A stretch of 4,790 bases of DNA from a virus. Taxonomy: Duplodnaviria > Heunggongvirae > Uroviricota > Caudoviricetes. The position numbers were made by a program, and so were the translations under genes. Of this stretch, positions 2-4,790 are shown one piece after another. Location: positions 1-4,790 of the IMG/VR virus record IMGVR_UViG_2531839439_000012. The stretch is one strand, 5' to 3'. Position 1 is the first letter of the stretch. Every line of letters starts with the position of its first letter. The notes beneath the pieces were generated by a model that made no database searches, was not told the origin of the DNA, and saw only the letters and a program-made list of their open reading frames with translations.

Positions 2-1051
2 CTGGTCAATGACCCGCGGGCCGTCACGCTGCATATTTCACCGGATATCGATGAACGGGAATTTATTACCCGTTATCTCGGTAATATGAATATCAGGATA
101 AGCCGTAAAAAGGGCGTTGATTATATTTACAGTCATACACCTGCCGCACCAGAGGAGCCGCTGAAATCCCTTGTTTACACGCCCCGTTACCGGACAGTGG
201 AGTATCTGCATCAGGCGCTTTCCGGTCTGGGTCAGCTTCCGGCCGCACAACAGCCGGTTCAGGGGGCAAACGGTGAGCAGACATGGCAGGCGGTCAGCAG
301 TGGTACCCGGTTCATCAGTGCATCCGGGGATGTGTTTGTGTTCCGGGGAACGGCCCGGGAAGTTGAGCTTGTCCGGCAGCTTCTGCCGCAGATTGACGTC
401 AGGGCACAGGAGGTTTCGGTTGCCGGGTATGTGTTTGAGGTCCAGACCAGTGAGCGTAACGGTTCAGGTCTGGCGCTGGCCGCAGAGCTTTTATCCGGTC
501 GTTTCAGTATCACCATGAGCAGCGCATCGGGGCTGGATAACTTTATTCGCCTCAGCACGGGGTCTGTTGATGCAATGTATGAGTTATTCAGGACCGACAG
601 CCGTTTTCAGGTGGTCAGTTCGCCACGTCTGCGCGTTATCTCCGGTAAGGAGGCGGTTTTCAGCGTGGGGTCTGATGTGCCGGTTCTGTCATCAGTGTCA
701 TGGCAGGATAAGGTTCCGGTGCAGTCCGTGGAATACCGCAGCAGCGGGGCTATTTTTCGGGTAAAACCCACCGTGACGCAGGATGTGATAGGTCTGGATA
801 TCGTTCAGCAGCTGAGTAACTTTGCAAAAACGGATACGGGGGTGAATAACACGCCAACGCTGATAAAGCGCGAGGTGTCCACGTCGGTGAGTCTGAATGA
901 CGGTGATATCATTGTGCTGGGCGGACTGGCGGAGAACAAGACATCAAAGGCGCGGACAGGGCTTTCATTTCTGCCGGATGTGTTTGGTTCAGACTCTGAT
1001 GAACGTGCGAAAACCGATATCATCGTCGTTCTTCAGGCCCGGCGGGTCTGA
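2..1051 (+). CDS. Secretin-family outer-membrane channel protein (phage pIV / T2SS GspD / type IV pilus secretin-like), C-terminal ~350 aa; 5' end lies upstream of window
   Basis: Frame is open from position 2 with no in-frame stop. The ATG at 86 has no Shine-Dalgarno and its N-terminus (MNIRISRKKG...) is not a signal peptide, so the true start is probably upstream. The C-terminal ~170 aa carry secretin-domain hallmarks: FQVVSSPRLRVISGKEAVFSVGSDVPV, VEYRSSGAIFRVKPTV, NNTPTLIKREVSTSVSLNDGDIIVLGGLAENKTSKARTGLSFLPDVFG, DIIVVLQARRV. Stop TGA at 1049-1051. Family assignment is from recalled motifs, not a search. Confidence 0.85.
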   Translation: MVNDPRAVTLHISPDIDEREFITRYLGNMNIRISRKKGVDYIYSHTPAAPEEPLKSLVYTPRYRTVEYLHQALSGLGQLPAAQQPVQGANGEQTWQAVSSGTRFISASGDVFVFRGTAREVELVRQLLPQIDVRAQEVSVAGYVFEVQTSERNGSGLALAAELLSGRFSITMSSASGLDNFIRLSTGSVDAMYELFRTDSRFQVVSSPRLRVISGKEAVFSVGSDVPVLSSVSWQDKVPVQSVEYRSSGAIFRVKPTVTQDVIGLDIVQQLSNFAKTDTGVNNTPTLIKREVSTSVSLNDGDIIVLGGLAENKTSKARTGLSFLPDVFGSDSDERAKTDIIVVLQARRV

Positions 1052-1449: not shown

Positions 1450-1487
1450 GCGCCTTATAGTTACCTGATTTATAAGGCGCTTTTTTT
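1450..1487 (+). terminator. Rho-independent terminator (10-bp perfect stem GCGCCTTATA / TATAAGGCGC, 11-nt loop, T7 tract)
   Basis: Stem left 1450-1459, loop 1460-1470, stem right 1471-1480, then TTTTTTT 1481-1487. On the opposite strand the stem is not followed by a T-run, so it is oriented for + strand transcripts. Confidence 0.65.
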
Positions 1488-1525: not shown

Positions 1526-1547
1526 TCTTATGACAGTGCGCATAAGA
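1526..1547 (+). promoter_or_regulatory. Inverted repeat TCTTATG-N8-CATAAGA (possible operator or protein-binding site)
   Basis: TCTTATG at 1526-1532 and CATAAGA at 1541-1547 are exact reverse complements separated by 8 bp. The site lies between the terminator and the TMP gene. Confidence 0.25.
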
Positions 1548-1577
1548 TTCATTACGTTAAAAACGACATGGGTATAT

Positions 1578-1616
1578 ATCAGTACTGATTTTACTGGAAA
1601 AACTGGATTTTCAGTA
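1578..1616 (+). repeat. 12-bp perfect palindrome ATCAGTACTGAT overlapping phased TACTG/ACTGG repeats separated by A4/T4 tracts
   Basis: ATCAGTACTGAT at 1578-1589 is its own reverse complement. ACTGA 1584-1588, ACTGG 1593-1597 and ACTGG 1602-1606 are direct repeats at exactly 9-bp spacing, with an inverted copy CAGTA at 1612-1616. The intervening TTTT/AAAA tracts are phased near one helical turn. Confidence 0.4.
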
Positions 1617-1769
1617 TCAATCCCAAAGAAGTATGGCTAATGCAGCTTTATAAGCAATTGATTCTATTAAGCGATGTTTTTTGTGATTGGTTGAAGCAAA
1701 CCTGAACACGAAGTCACTGAAGCGGCAATAAACTGTTTCATGGCGGAATTATTAGAGTAAAGAACAATC

Positions 1770-1804
1770 GGAGGTATCCGCACAACGCGGATATACAGGA
1801 CATG
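1770..1804 (+). promoter_or_regulatory. Structured translation-initiation region of the TMP gene: SD GGAGG (1770-1774), then a 7-bp stem-loop (1775-1793), then 8 nt, then ATG 1802
   Basis: TATCCGC (1775-1781) and GCGGATA (1787-1793) are exact reverse complements around loop ACAAC. GGAGG is 27 nt from the ATG in linear sequence, but folding would leave an effective spacing of about 8 nt. No other in-frame start lies between the upstream stop (1718-1720) and 1802. Confidence 0.3.
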
Positions 1805-3703
1805 AGTAACACAAACGTAGGTAGAATTTATTATGAGGTTGATGCGCGCACAGGGAAGCTATTAACCGCAGGGAAACAAGCTGACGACGCATTCGATCGC
1901 ATTGAACGCGGCGCAAAGCGCGCTGATAACTCAATCAACAAACTGAATACGACAATCAGCAAACTGGCGGCGGCGGTTAACGTTGGCCTGCTAATGATGG
2001 CGGCTAAACGCTTTATTGAAATCGCGGACAACGTAAAACTACTACGCGCCCGTGTATCCCGGCTATCCGGTAGTCTGGTTGAAGCTAAGGCTAATTTTAG
2101 CGGCATTCTTGAGATCAGCAAGCGAACTGGCATGAAGATTGAGGATACTACGAAGTTATGGGAAAACCTTACTTCAGCTTTGTCTGATTCAAACGCTACC
2201 AGGGGCCAGATCTTACAGTTGACAGAGACACTACAGCAGATCGGGCGTATTGGTGGTAGTTCATCCGAAGAAGCCGCAAACGCCTTGCGACAGTTAGGGC
2301 AATCTATTAACGGCGGGATTGTCCGTGCTGAGGAATTTAACAGCATCCTGGAGGGTATGCCGGAGCTATGGCGGCGCGTAGCAAGTCAGATGGGGATCTC
2401 AATGGGTGAGCTACGTCGCCGCATGTTGGATGGCAAACTGACGGCTGAGGATGTAGTAAATGCAATCCTGAAAGGATCAGGCGAAATCGAAAAAGAATTT
2501 AACAAGCTGCCGACAACCACGGAACAGGCAATGACAGAGCTATCAACAAATTTTAGCCTGTTACTGGAAACCATCGACCAGACGCTGCATGTTACTGAAC
2601 TGGTCGGTCGCGGTATTAAAACGCTGGCTGATTATTGCCGCGAGCTATCCGGCTGGTTTAAAACGCTGAAATCTGATTCTGCGTCATTGGCTGATAAGTT
2701 ATGGACACTTGCCGCAGCCTTTGAGCCGTTTGTGCCGGGCCTTGATTTATTCCGCGCTCAAGCCAAACAAACCGACTTCTTAGGCGCAGCGCCAGACAAT
2801 CAATCTACGGGTTTTGTGTCAACGCTACCGACACAGCAGGCCACCACTGATATTAAGCTGAAAGACAATGGCGGTGGAGGTGGCAATAAACCGAAACGCG
2901 CGCAGAAAGATCCGGCAGAAGAATCGCTGAAACGGAAACGCGCAGAACTGGAACGACTTAACCAGGGCTTTGCTGAGGGTAGCAAAGAGGCTGAAATGTG
3001 GGACGCCGTTCAGGAAATGGGCGCTAACGCAACGGCAAAACAGGTTAGTGAGATGAAAAACCTTGCGCACCTGATTTACGAAACAAACGCCGCGCGTGAG
3101 CATCAAATCGAACTGGAAGAAAAAGCAAAACAGCTTAATGAGCAATTTAATCCCGTTGATGCGCTCAAACAACGCCATGCCCTTGAAATGCAACAGGCTG
3201 ATGAGCTATTCAACAAACAGATGATTAACGAGGAAACGCTAAACGCGCTTAAACAACAGCACGCAGAAGAATTGCTTGCCTCGCAGTGGGAACAATTCCG
3301 GGCGCAAGGTGGGATTAATGGCCTGATTGGTGACATGGCTGATGGCCTGAGTGGTGGCGCTACAAATGCCGTTGTCGGCCTGCTTAATGGTACGCAGAAC
3401 CTGGAAACCGCTTTCGCCAATATCGGGACTACCATTCTCGGAAAAGTGGTGGGAAGTATCGCTGAGATGGGCGCTGAATACGTCAAACAAATGATCTTAA
3501 GCGAGGCAGCCAGCGCCAGCGCAATGAGCGGACAAGCGGCAACAGGCGCATCAATCGCATCATCAATGGCCCCGGCAGCAGCGGCGACAGCTACCGCGAC
3601 AATGGGGACGGCCCCGATGGTCGCAATGTCAGCTATCAGCGCCTTGATGGCTGGCATTACTGGCTTGTTTTGGCGGTGGTCGCTACAACGGCGGCGCGGT
3701 TAA
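1802..3703 (+). CDS. Phage tail tape measure protein-like (N-terminal TMP domain, K/E/Q-rich coiled-coil, Gly/Ala-rich hydrophobic region); frame as given ends prematurely at 3703
   Basis: 633-aa ORF. Residues ~150-230 (LRQLGQSINGGIVRAEEFNSILEGMPELWRRVASQMGISMGELRRRMLDGKLTAEDVVNAIL) match the conserved tape-measure N-terminal domain as I recall it. A long charged helical segment (KRKRAELERL...QQHAEELLASQWEQFRAQ) is followed by a Gly/Ala/Ser-rich hydrophobic segment, as is typical of TMPs. The ATG at 1802 is the first start after an in-frame stop at 1718-1720. Confidence 0.85.
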   Translation: MSNTNVGRIYYEVDARTGKLLTAGKQADDAFDRIERGAKRADNSINKLNTTISKLAAAVNVGLLMMAAKRFIEIADNVKLLRARVSRLSGSLVEAKANFSGILEISKRTGMKIEDTTKLWENLTSALSDSNATRGQILQLTETLQQIGRIGGSSSEEAANALRQLGQSINGGIVRAEEFNSILEGMPELWRRVASQMGISMGELRRRMLDGKLTAEDVVNAILKGSGEIEKEFNKLPTTTEQAMTELSTNFSLLLETIDQTLHVTELVGRGIKTLADYCRELSGWFKTLKSDSASLADKLWTLAAAFEPFVPGLDLFRAQAKQTDFLGAAPDNQSTGFVSTLPTQQATTDIKLKDNGGGGGNKPKRAQKDPAEESLKRKRAELERLNQGFAEGSKEAEMWDAVQEMGANATAKQVSEMKNLAHLIYETNAAREHQIELEEKAKQLNEQFNPVDALKQRHALEMQQADELFNKQMINEETLNALKQQHAEELLASQWEQFRAQGGINGLIGDMADGLSGGATNAVVGLLNGTQNLETAFANIGTTILGKVVGSIAEMGAEYVKQMILSEAASASAMSGQAATGASIASSMAPAAAATATATMGTAPMVAMSAISALMAGITGLFWRWSLQRRRG

Positions 3704-3995
3704 CGGTGGCAATCTTTACAGGGTTGGTGAGCACGGTGTCCCTGAGTTATTTACCTCTACTGGCGGGAAACAGTACATGATCCCCGGCGAGGGTGGACGA
3801 GTTACACCGGGCCGCGATCTGGTTGGCAGTGGTGGCGGCATCACACTGAACGTAACAAACAACATCCAGGCGACAAACGGCTGGACTGAAGACGACTCAA
3901 AAGCGTTGCAACAGACTATAGAAAACACAGCAATGCGCCTGATGCAGCGCGAGTCGCAAAGACCTGGAGGCATGTTACAACCACGGCGGCGTTAA
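3672..3995 (+). CDS. C-terminal segment of the same tape-measure-like protein, in the +1 frame (frameshifted continuation); the 6-frame track shows its ATG-initiated part as 3777..3995
   Basis: The frame with codons at 3672, 3675, ... is open from 3648 to the TAA at 3993-3995. It encodes GGGRYNGGAVNGGNLYRVGEHGVPELFTSTGGKQYMIPGEGGRVTPG..., which resembles the conserved TMP C-terminus (compare phage lambda gpH ...GNLYRLMRGY... and the common ...YRVGE.GPEL... pattern). Both frames are open across 3648-3703, and the junction sits at the T4 run 3668-3671. Confidence 0.6.
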   Translation, partial: GGGRYNGGAVNGGNLYRVGEHGVPELFTSTGGKQYMIPGEGGRVTPGRDLVGSGGGITLNVTNNIQATNGWTEDDSKALQQTIENTAMRLMQRESQRPGGMLQPRRR

Positions 3996-4165
3996 CCAAA
4001 TCCCACGCCAGGGGGATAGACTGGCGGACCTTCAAAGACGGTCGCACACCGTGTTTAACATAATTTATTGTTTTTTGCTTGCTCTTATTATTGCAGCCGT
4101 TAGAGTTGGCGTGGCAGTTTTTCACCTGTTTCGCGTGTTGCTGTGTTTTTGGGGAAGAAAAACAA

Positions 4166-4261
4166 ATGAGAAGGCTTATATACCTGGTATTTATGCTATT
4201 TGCTATCGGGCAAGCCATAATTTTTATCACAATGCTGATCTGTCTGATGCTCTTTAGTTAA
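4166..4261 (+). CDS. Candidate small hydrophobic membrane peptide (31 aa: MRRLIYLVFMLFAIGQAIIFITMLICLMLFS)
   Basis: ATG at 4166 is preceded by GGGGAAG (4151-4157) at about 8-nt spacing. The peptide has a basic N-terminus (RR) followed by one predicted transmembrane helix. It is the internal-start version of the 60-aa ORF 4079..4261. I recognise no homolog, and short ORFs in AT-rich DNA are often spurious. Confidence 0.25.
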   Translation: MRRLIYLVFMLFAIGQAIIFITMLICLMLFS

Positions 4262-4790
4262 CTCCACCAGGATCCGCGCCGGGCTTTGCTATACAGACCA
4301 ATCACTCTTAATATAAGCTATTGATTCTTCTTAATTATAACCGCGCGTTAGAATTAACCTTCCCGCCATAAACGCTCCTACGCAAAAATCCCTCACAACT
4401 ACCCTGTCAATTTGCCAGATTTCACGTACACGCGCCCATATCCCCGCTACCGGATACACGCCCGCTTATACCGGACACCGGATAAACAAAGGCCCAGGTA
4501 GTTAGCAACCTACCCAGGCCCCGCGCATGGTTTTAATGCCATCATTATTAAGCATGCTAATACTAATCAAATCATAATTAGCACAACTTATAATCGAACA
4601 GAAAACACACAAACCAGATAATGATTTTTTCTGGTTATACTTATCTAAAAAAGTGGTATAGGATGTAACTTATTATTTTGTAAGGATAAATTTATTGCGT
4701 GGTAAGATGAACAGGCTTGTGCACCTCCCGAAAAACACGCGAAAATCAAAGTGTTCTTTCTTTTTTTGTTTTTATTTTTTCATTTTCTCT

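Follow-up and report, generated by a model that had tools for sequence, protein, structure and literature searches.

The 39-bp stretch at positions 1578–1616 of the window (the window being the whole 4,790-nucleotide sequence analysed here, that is, the entire 4.8-kb contig AQCR01000005.1 of draft assembly GCA_000354495.2) appears from comparison of related loci to be the part nearest the core within a conserved ~190-bp non-coding module, which opens with a Xer recombination core of the type found on plasmids and used by integrative mobile elements exploiting Xer (IMEX). The stretch begins 16 bp right of the XerD arm of this core, and lies in the 290–320 bp non-coding region upstream of the tape measure protein (TMP) gene of a genomic island in Escherichia coli. 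An earlier note on this DNA had described the stretch as a multi-site array of TACTG repeats close to the TMP gene, and it overlooked the dif-like XerC/XerD core 16 bp to the left and the filamentous prophage beyond that core. Its reading is partly supported by the present data: palindrome conservation and predicted curvature stand up, whereas the TACTG array and its link to TMP do not.

Matches to other genomes indicate that the window is a composite, with the right end of a filamentous (Inovirus-type) prophage at 1–1545 and a CPZ-55-like island at 1546–4790. Positions 1–1553 are similar to non-coding DNA and the secretin gene of filamentous prophages (L002), and 1535–4790 show a 99.5% match to the eutB–eutA island of strain TOK-001 (L001). 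Both matches cover AGTGCGCATAA-GATTCA-TT. In the 28-mer at 1535–1562 the XerC arm AGTGCGCATAA (1535–1545) is common to phage and island, and the central region GATTCA (1546–1551) and the XerD arm TTACGTTAAAA (1552–1562) both come from the island. The arms of the core are identical to those of E. coli dif (GGTGCGCATAATGTATATTATGTTAAAT, confirmed in K-12 between ydeT and hipA) at 19 of 22 positions, and none of 200 shuffles was as good. The uninterrupted island site in L001 reads AGTGCGCATTA GATTCA TTACGTTAAAA, and other island variants are nearer to dif (AGTGCGCATAA-CGTACA-TTATGTGAAAA).

For the conservation of this site, we aligned 30 copies of the non-coding stretch upstream of TMP from CPZ-55-type islands in E. 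coli genomes and metagenomes, which gave 24 distinct variants, and compared them with 9 variants from a second family of islands at yecE. Variable columns in the CPZ-55-type alignment amount to 2/11 in the XerD arm, 3/11 in the XerC arm and 4/6 in the central region. Among the yecE-type variants the XerD arm shows no change and five different centres occur. In dif sites, the XerD arm is better conserved than the XerC arm and the central region is variable (PMC2731167), hence a XerD arm conserved above the XerC arm, together with a hypervariable centre in both families, is the pattern described for dif sites. We assign the island site to the XerC/XerD core family, whose members have two 11-bp arms set 6–8 bp apart, on the grounds of sequence, conservation pattern and natural recombination.

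Natural recombination is indicated by the junction itself. In the window, the phage end ...CTGATCTTATGAC-AGTGCGCATAA is joined to island GATTCA-TTACGTTAAAA, and the junction falls inside the XerC arm or at its right border. In strain RM14721 (L072), one related prophage occupies the dif locus between hipA and ydeT. Its right junction reads ...CTGATCTTATGAC-AGTGCGCATAA-TGTATA-TTATGTTAAAT, with the phage XerC arm on the dif centre and XerD arm, and its left, reciprocal junction runs from the host flank through GGTGCGCATAA into the phage. In L073, a plasmid of 103 kb, the sequence next to this phage end is CGTACA-TTATGTTAAAT. A XerC arm of the phage set on the centre and XerD arm of the target is the anatomy of a Xer-dependent integrative element (PMC5357621), and by every feature testable the join in the window appears to be an attR-type junction of a Xer-dependent filamentous prophage. 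Because the same phage end is found on the island site, on dif and on a plasmid site, the island site has evidently been recombined by Xer in nature. On this comparative rather than biochemical basis, the island core would be an Xer substrate already used in nature, and the phage family appears to integrate at several kinds of Xer site in E. coli.

As in attR junctions of IMEX of the CTXphi type at dif, the window carries the phage XerC arm followed by the centre and XerD arm of the target, and the phage family of the window shows the identical anatomy at chromosomal dif with the reciprocal attL. The window differs in that the target is an ectopic dif/psi-like site within a CPZ-55-like island in the eut operon, and in that the left prophage junction lies past the end of the contig. 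The expected reciprocal junction would consist of the upstream flank of the island ending in ...GACTGGCGGAATATATCCAT, then AGTGCGCAT(T/A)A, and then phage ATATCATTTGTCTCACACGG. Chromosomal dif itself was rejected as an identity of the site, as the island module sits in the eut operon or at yecE and not in the hipA–ydeT terminus region; the native dif flank of K-12 has no palindrome. The phage has two inverted XerC-arm-like sequences flanking a hairpin, which is the layout expected when a single-strand attP folds. Such prophages carry genes for Zot, coat protein, replication initiator and GspD, as seen in L002 and L072, and in L002 (E. coli JNE25-005) they are arranged in tandem. The prophage spans 722–9470 in L072 at chromosomal dif, and a remnant occupies ~8300–9470 in L073 at the plasmid Xer site. 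Coordinates of the window features are collected in the table.

Table. Features of the window, with the strand and the basis on which each was recognised.
Feature	Position	Strand	Basis or remark
Secretin gene, 3' part (pIV/GspD-like)	86..1051	+	Open reading frame (ORF); Pfam Secretin; same DNA in L002 and L072 prophage arrays
Perfect 10-bp inverted repeat then T-run, non-coding right prophage end	1450..1480	+	Conserved in L002, L072, L073
Predicted dif/psi-like Xer core, attR-type hybrid	1535..1562	+	Arm match to dif; junction comparison
Spacer between XerD arm and palindrome	1563..1577	.	15 bp; length fixed, sequence variable
12-bp palindrome ATCAGTACTGAT, conserved core TATCAGTAYTGATT	1578..1589	.	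Offset 43 from core start
Three ACTGR units, 9-bp spacing	1584..1606	+	Lineage-specific: only in window, L001, L019, L023
9–10 bp inverted repeat/hairpin	1591..1617	+	Arms 1592–1600 and 1608–1616; loop 1601–1607
Most conserved non-coding block	1641..1760	.	18–22% of columns vary; ungapped versus yecE type to ~offset 190
IHF consensus AATCAATTGCTTA (WATCAANNNNTTR)	1651..1663	-	Offset 116 from core start, both families
GGAGG (1770–1774) and hairpin TATCCGC-acaac-GCGGATA (1775–1793)	1770..1801	+	Before TMP start codon
TMP gene	1802..3995	+	Pfam TMP_3, PHROG tape-measure families; compare the intact 734-aa gene of L001
XerD-like half site TTATGTTAAAC	4052..4062	-	Inverted, 3' of TMP gene; XerD arm 10/11, XerC arm 5/11

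The conserved module extends from this core to the right only. Homology among CPZ-55-type variants starts exactly at the Xer core, with at least three unrelated sequences to its left, and mosaic upstream modules begin at the left edge of the core. Within the module, the palindrome varies in 2 of 12 columns among the 24 variants, on par with the XerD arm and with the best-conserved block (11 of 60 columns at 1641–1700), which makes the palindrome a plausible protein-binding site and to that extent supports the earlier note. Its offset from the start of the core is the same in every module-bearing locus of both families that a pattern scan found (~34 loci). The palindrome is perfect in 5 of the 30 CPZ-55-type sequences and in all 9 yecE-type variants, and otherwise pairs at 10 of 12 positions (ATCAGTATTGAT); in the yecE type, TATCAGTACTGATTTATAA is invariant along with the XerD arm.

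Comparison of the two island families shows to which neighbour the palindrome belongs. The window matches yecE-type islands over 57 bp at 84% identity, and this match comprises the core, the 15-bp spacer and TATATCAGTACTGATTT. As the palindrome of yecE-type islands lies beside the same core, 6.4 kb from TMP, it belongs to the Xer core and not to the TMP gene. Aligning the families with gaps is misleading, and the ungapped register is informative: without gaps, 88 of 243 positions are identical, compared with 66 ± 7 in shuffles, and no shift of up to ±6 does better than register 0 (P ~0.001). The IHF consensus has 4 matches in the window, where 0.43 are expected, and none of them is inside 1578–1616. 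No conserved small ORF overlaps the module.

The stretch does hold the elements that the earlier note listed. The perfect 12-bp palindrome is present, the three ACTGR repeats have exactly the 9-bp spacing described (ACTGA at 1584, ACTGG at 1593 and ACTGG at 1602), and TCAGTA at 1611–1616 is the inverted copy that was said to close the array. For the alternating T4/A4 tracts, both T4 tracts (1589–1592 and 1608–1611) were found, and the middle tract is A5 (1598–1602) rather than A4. The distance of about 200 bp to the TMP gene was also right, as the array ends 186 bp before the TMP ATG. Each of these elements alone is ordinary. A 12-bp perfect palindrome is expected 1.3 times per window and occurred at least once in 76% of dinucleotide shuffles, an evenly spaced triple of any 4-mer has an expectation of 0.43 and turned up in 34% of shuffles, and five copies of one 4-mer within 40 bp are unremarkable (P=0.45). 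A 12-bp palindrome within 30 bp of an equally spaced 4-mer triple is rare (5 of 1000 shuffles), and ACTGR-N4-ACTGR-N4-ACTGR occurred in 0 of 200 shuffles, a pattern chosen a posteriori.

Conservation of the repeats is a different matter: the palindrome is kept, and the repeat segment is the most variable. Besides the window, 68 loci were fetched, and only 3 of them carry the exact triple; elsewhere the units read ATTGA, ATTGG, ACTTG or GATGA. In most variants C is replaced by T in units 1 and 2 (ATCAGTATTGAT and CATTGG), and in several unit 3 is ACTTG or GATGA. The T-tract at 1589–1592 is not conserved, and the A-tract and the last T-tract are. Units 2 and 3 with the inverted copy make up the inverted repeat of 9–10 bp, and this segment (1591–1617) varies in 13 of 27 columns among the 24 variants, which places it among the least conserved parts. 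Between families, offsets 57–110, which hold the ACTGR repeats, are the least similar part. The spacer at offsets 57–115 varies in sequence and never in length.

Predicted curvature is retained across this variable spacer. In a wedge model with the parameters of Bolshoy and Trifonov, which separates A4T4 from T4A4 correctly, the window reaches its maximum of 33.8 degrees at 1596, as compared with 35 for a phased-A6 control and a window median of 10. A local maximum of 24–35 degrees at 1596–1606 is kept in 18 of the 24 variants, and the yecE family, with another sequence, has its peak at the same offset of 63–65. By its helix-phased A/T tracts and high predicted curvature, the stretch is thus predicted to be intrinsically curved DNA, as the earlier note had anticipated.

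The palindrome, the spacer and the IHF consensus stand at fixed distances from the core, which suggests a single nucleoprotein site. We consider it possible, and hold the view with somewhat less than even confidence, that the module is the XerD-side accessory architecture of an island-borne Xer site. In such an arrangement, a dimeric factor of island or host origin would bind the palindrome, and the intrinsic bend together with IHF would fold the XerD-side flank back onto the core. The resulting accessory nucleoprotein architecture would control Xer recombination at this site, for example in FtsK-independent dimer resolution of the excised circular island, and would be a mirror image of the accessory sequences that cer and psi have on the XerC side. 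Xer-dependent filamentous phages would also find an ectopic landing pad here. That the site further represents an undescribed kind, defined in two TMP-island families by a XerD-side palindrome factor at +15 bp, a fixed curved spacer and an IHF site, seems doubtful to us at present.

The island site has features in common with cer of ColE1 and psi of pSC101. The central region of psi is GATCCA. All these sites have a XerC–XerD core with a 6-bp centre, and GATTCA of the island resembles that of psi. They also share a one-sided conserved non-coding flank of ~160–190 bp with fixed spacing, a palindrome of a protein-binding type and bent DNA. However, the conserved flank of the island lies on the XerD side, and the flank on the XerC side is replaced by unrelated sequences; by eye, with no formal scan, the module showed no ARG box, ArcA site or PepA signature, and an IHF consensus is found instead. 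As cer/psi-type sites are defined by ~160–180 bp of conserved accessory DNA next to the XerC arm, the island site, with its conserved flank opposite, falls outside this definition. Small ColE10-type plasmids carry a close relative of the core (GGTGCGCGCAA-GATCCA-TTATGTTAAAA-ACGACA), and in a mobilisable plasmid of this type (L035, ~1500–1600) the likeness runs past the XerD arm into AAAACGACA of the window, hence the similarity of island and plasmid sites extends a few bases beyond the canonical 28 bp. Searches of plasmids with the module returned the Xer core only.

By analogy, the nearest biological parallel appears to be TLCphi, a Vibrio cholerae satellite whose XafT activates XerD and which provides or repairs a dif site that CTXphi uses (PMC6744903, PMC9226527). 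In both cases a satellite-like element provides a Xer site for a filamentous phage, perhaps with a dedicated factor on the XerD side. TLCphi differs in being itself an IMEX integrated at dif, whereas the islands at eut or yecE rely on a recombinase of their own, of the tyrosine (IntZ) or serine type. Among the island proteins scanned, none was DUF3653/XafT-like.

Several observations weigh against accessory architecture on the XerD side. We infer the accessory role from the architecture. The accessory DNA of cer and psi lies on the XerC side and works with PepA and ArgR or ArcA (PMC5357621), and the island module has an IHF consensus and a palindrome on the XerD side. The imperfect ATCAGTATTGAT of most CPZ-55-type variants is odd for a strictly dyad-symmetric binder, and the IHF consensus is imperfect in about half of the yecE-type variants. 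In the inverted repeat, strand-asymmetric substitutions compatible with G-U fit RNA better than duplex DNA. No replication gene was recognised among the island proteins scanned. The reciprocal junction is beyond reach in a 4.8-kb draft contig, the ORF that spans the junction has no database record, and a chimeric join of the contig would undermine the junction, which is unlikely because phage and island have only ~12 bp in common.

The substitution pattern of the inverted repeat leads to another explanation, in which the repeat, perhaps with an AUCA-GUAC-UGAU hairpin, belongs to a structured leader of the TMP mRNA or to a small RNA of the + strand and acts in stability, processing, antitermination or translation. 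RNAalifold predicts a hairpin on the + strand only (-8.4 versus -2.0 kcal/mol), and the hairpin recurs in each single-sequence fold. Pairing is kept in 97.6% of cells, as compared with 27–54% in slid controls; two pairs change on both sides (with a U-A to C-G double change), and each of the six one-sided transitions leaves a G-U pair on the + strand. Where the palindrome varies, the position belongs to the would-be loop or again yields G-U. A second conserved hairpin lies between the Shine–Dalgarno (SD) sequence and AUG, where the sequence of L013 differs yet pairs, which makes it certain that mRNA includes the 3' part of the region. Nevertheless, the hairpin is no stabler than shuffles (z +0.55 to -1.1), and the data contain only two main haplotypes and therefore few independent events or lineages. 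No upstream promoter and no Rfam match were found, and the yecE family has no such hairpin. Its module faces a convergent gene 430 bp away, with no + strand gene downstream. The strictly fixed distances to the core and to the IHF consensus point to duplex DNA. Taken together, we regard the RNA explanation as unlikely. The same grade applies to a packaging or replication site, that is, a terminase region like pac or cosB or an origin to which the Xer core is merely adjacent. Regions such as SPP1 pacL, lambda cosB and P1 pac, as well as origins, typically contain protein-binding repeats, intrinsic bends and IHF sites, and the module combines a palindrome, a bend, repeats and an IHF consensus in this manner. 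Like those terminase regions it has short repeated boxes, phased A-tracts or a bend and an IHF site in non-coding DNA near packaging genes; in one subset of islands it directly follows a small-terminase-like gene of the Sf6 type and an HNH endonuclease module. Satellites all need such cis sites and none is identified on these islands, and iteron-like repeats occur further right in the yecE-type region. Yet the repeated units of the module are not conserved, neither island family's module has DNA similarity to any of 50,697 phage records, and no replication initiator gene was recognised among the proteins scanned. In many variants the TerS-like upstream module is swapped for unrelated genes while the module is unchanged, so the terminase-like neighbour is dispensable for its conservation.

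Less probable still is that only the length of this AT-rich spacer is constrained and that the ACTGR triple and the T/A tracts are accidental. Single elements are indeed expected by chance, and the segment is the least conserved one within and between families at constant length, which fits this idea. It is harder to reconcile with an inverted repeat that keeps its pairing through at least 8 substitutions, and with predicted curvature kept at the same offset in two families of differing sequence; we give it a small chance. The multi-site reading of the earlier note, an operator or iteron-like TACTG array through which a repressor or initiator controls TMP ~190 bp downstream, is the most improbable of all and is largely refuted by the comparative data as we read them. 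The whole pattern is statistically unusual in the window, the palindrome is conserved and the islands encode small helix-turn-helix (HTH) proteins. Against this, the exact form is present in only 3 of the 68 other loci, most variants have an ATTG core in units 1 and 2, and several have no unit 3. The units are 5–6 bp long; iterons are three or more conserved direct repeats, typically of 17–22 bp, by an initiator gene and an AT-rich/DnaA region. The check for further copies of the motif that the earlier note had proposed found the palindrome and the motif once per element. No sigma-70 promoter overlaps the stretch, the palindrome stays by the Xer core where TMP is far away, and CPZ-55 of K-12 lacks both the module and the TMP gene.

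Known binding sites were rejected as identities of the stretch. The half-site words TACTG and CAGTA of the LexA box (TACTG-N10-CAGTA) recur in it, but they are abutted (CAGTACTG) or 16 bp apart; no CTG-N10-CAG is present in or near the stretch, and the sole matches in the window are at 470 and 2328. For SlmA, FNR, Fis, ArgR, ArcA, TrpR and the TTAC-hairpin of IS200/IS605, key bases or spacing do not match (judged by eye, with no formal scan). A search of the region against Rfam at E<=1 gave a spurious miRNA match only. Sigma-70 promoter and terminator scans of three loci gave nothing convincing (one weak minus-strand match is present in haplotype B only), and 1535–1800 contains no sigma-70-like site.

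Searches for the module outside these islands gave little. The 50,697 phage records, which include the phages with the closest TMPs, had no DNA match to the filamentous part of the window either. An exact-pattern scan with a conserved 30-mer had no match in species-representative genomes and IMG/VR, and a scan of IMG/VR for core plus palindrome gave 28 matches, of which 2 are real and both yecE-type. Searching representative genomes for TMP-based loci returned only a distant Brenneria TMP without the module.

The two families of TMP-encoding, phage-satellite-like islands that carry the module share little else. Among carrier strains is ATCC 8739 (NC_010468.1, ~1,352,300–1,352,570). Among 5,426 complete genomes, CPZ-55-type islands between eutB and eutA were counted in 81 and yecE-type islands in 295, the latter also in two IMG/VR contigs. 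The eutB–eutA position is that of the cryptic prophage CPZ-55 in K-12 (PMC6379469). Related islands carry intZ, a full-length TMP gene, an HNH endonuclease, a small HTH gene and small unknown genes, and some also have the Sf6-type small-terminase-like gene; the closest phage TMPs (mEp013, the mEp021 group and Salmonella Oslo/SPN3UB) are 43–50% identical. The yecE-type islands have a serine recombinase, and their site lies near the end of the island. A distant TMP and an HNH_3/AP2-like protein are the only proteins common to both families. In L032–L034, 150–290 bp right of the core, a long conserved non-coding stretch contains GATGCTATGAAG twice and the inverted repeat TAGCTGTTACA/TGTTACAGCTA, and it looks like an origin or another protein-binding region.

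Breakpoints cluster around the core. The segment with Xer core, module and TMP gene (14990–17849 of L001) is missing from CPZ-55 of K-12 (L069, ~7167–7177), whose indel breakpoint lies 12 bp left of the core; data sets from K-12 are therefore uninformative on the module. In K-12, yffO is the TerS-like gene and yffP is the 197-aa gene upstream of the module. A cargo junction lies inside the XerD arm in the metagenomic contig L019, where an ABC-3C defence system of ABC ATPase, MComp1 and Cap4-nuclease/CTD1 effector (5919–10222 on the minus strand, junction at ~10862) stands in place of the genes normally found upstream. Cargo may thus have a hotspot in the core region. The hairpin-forming CGCCAGGGG..AGACTGGCGGA occurs in L001 at 14966–14990 just 5' of the core and in the window at 4005–4028 right after the TMP stop codon; present at both places, it forms a direct repeat that brackets the core–module–TMP segment in one class of islands. 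Downstream of TMP, the half site at 4052–4062 is followed by ACG, as at the main site, and is present in L001, L003 and L005. At 4384–4428, also 3' of TMP, the window has AAAAATC-N25-CAGATTTCACGTA, similar to the 55 bp directly upstream of the yecE-type core (L032, 2946–2990). This likeness is weak (E=0.16) with equal spacing, and a relation like circular permutation may exist between the two families.

The TMP gene has features of its own. In the window contig it is split by one additional T in the T-run at 3665–3668, and relative to TOK-001 it lacks 12 bp in frame at 3534. The split could reflect pseudogenisation, a sequencing error or recoding. In a metagenomic contig (L071, 4703–6873) TMP is split differently and ends in the same 72-aa ORF as in the window. 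GGAGG is 27 nt before the ATG with the conserved hairpin between them, and L013 has the other pairing sequence CCCGA-agcga-TCGGG. This arrangement suggests that the hairpin may bring SD and start codon together or gate translation.

Our results can help to understand how filamentous phages find sites outside dif. The present comparison points to a Xer-dependent filamentous phage whose target site in the eut operon belongs to a second mobile element, and dif-like sites on islands and plasmids would widen the integration range of IMEX in E. coli. An Inovirus would then be nested in a satellite that is nested in the chromosome, with islands acting as ectopic landing pads. For annotation, an upstream repeat array of TMP of this kind should not be labelled an operator. 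The module is the only non-coding element common to both island families, which are themselves uncharacterised. dif requires FtsK, and to our knowledge all well-studied accessory systems (cer and psi) are on the XerC side. If accessory architecture on the XerD side is true, these islands would gain FtsK-independent and topologically filtered recombination, and a XerD-side module with strict spacing would be a new mode of control of the same recombinases.

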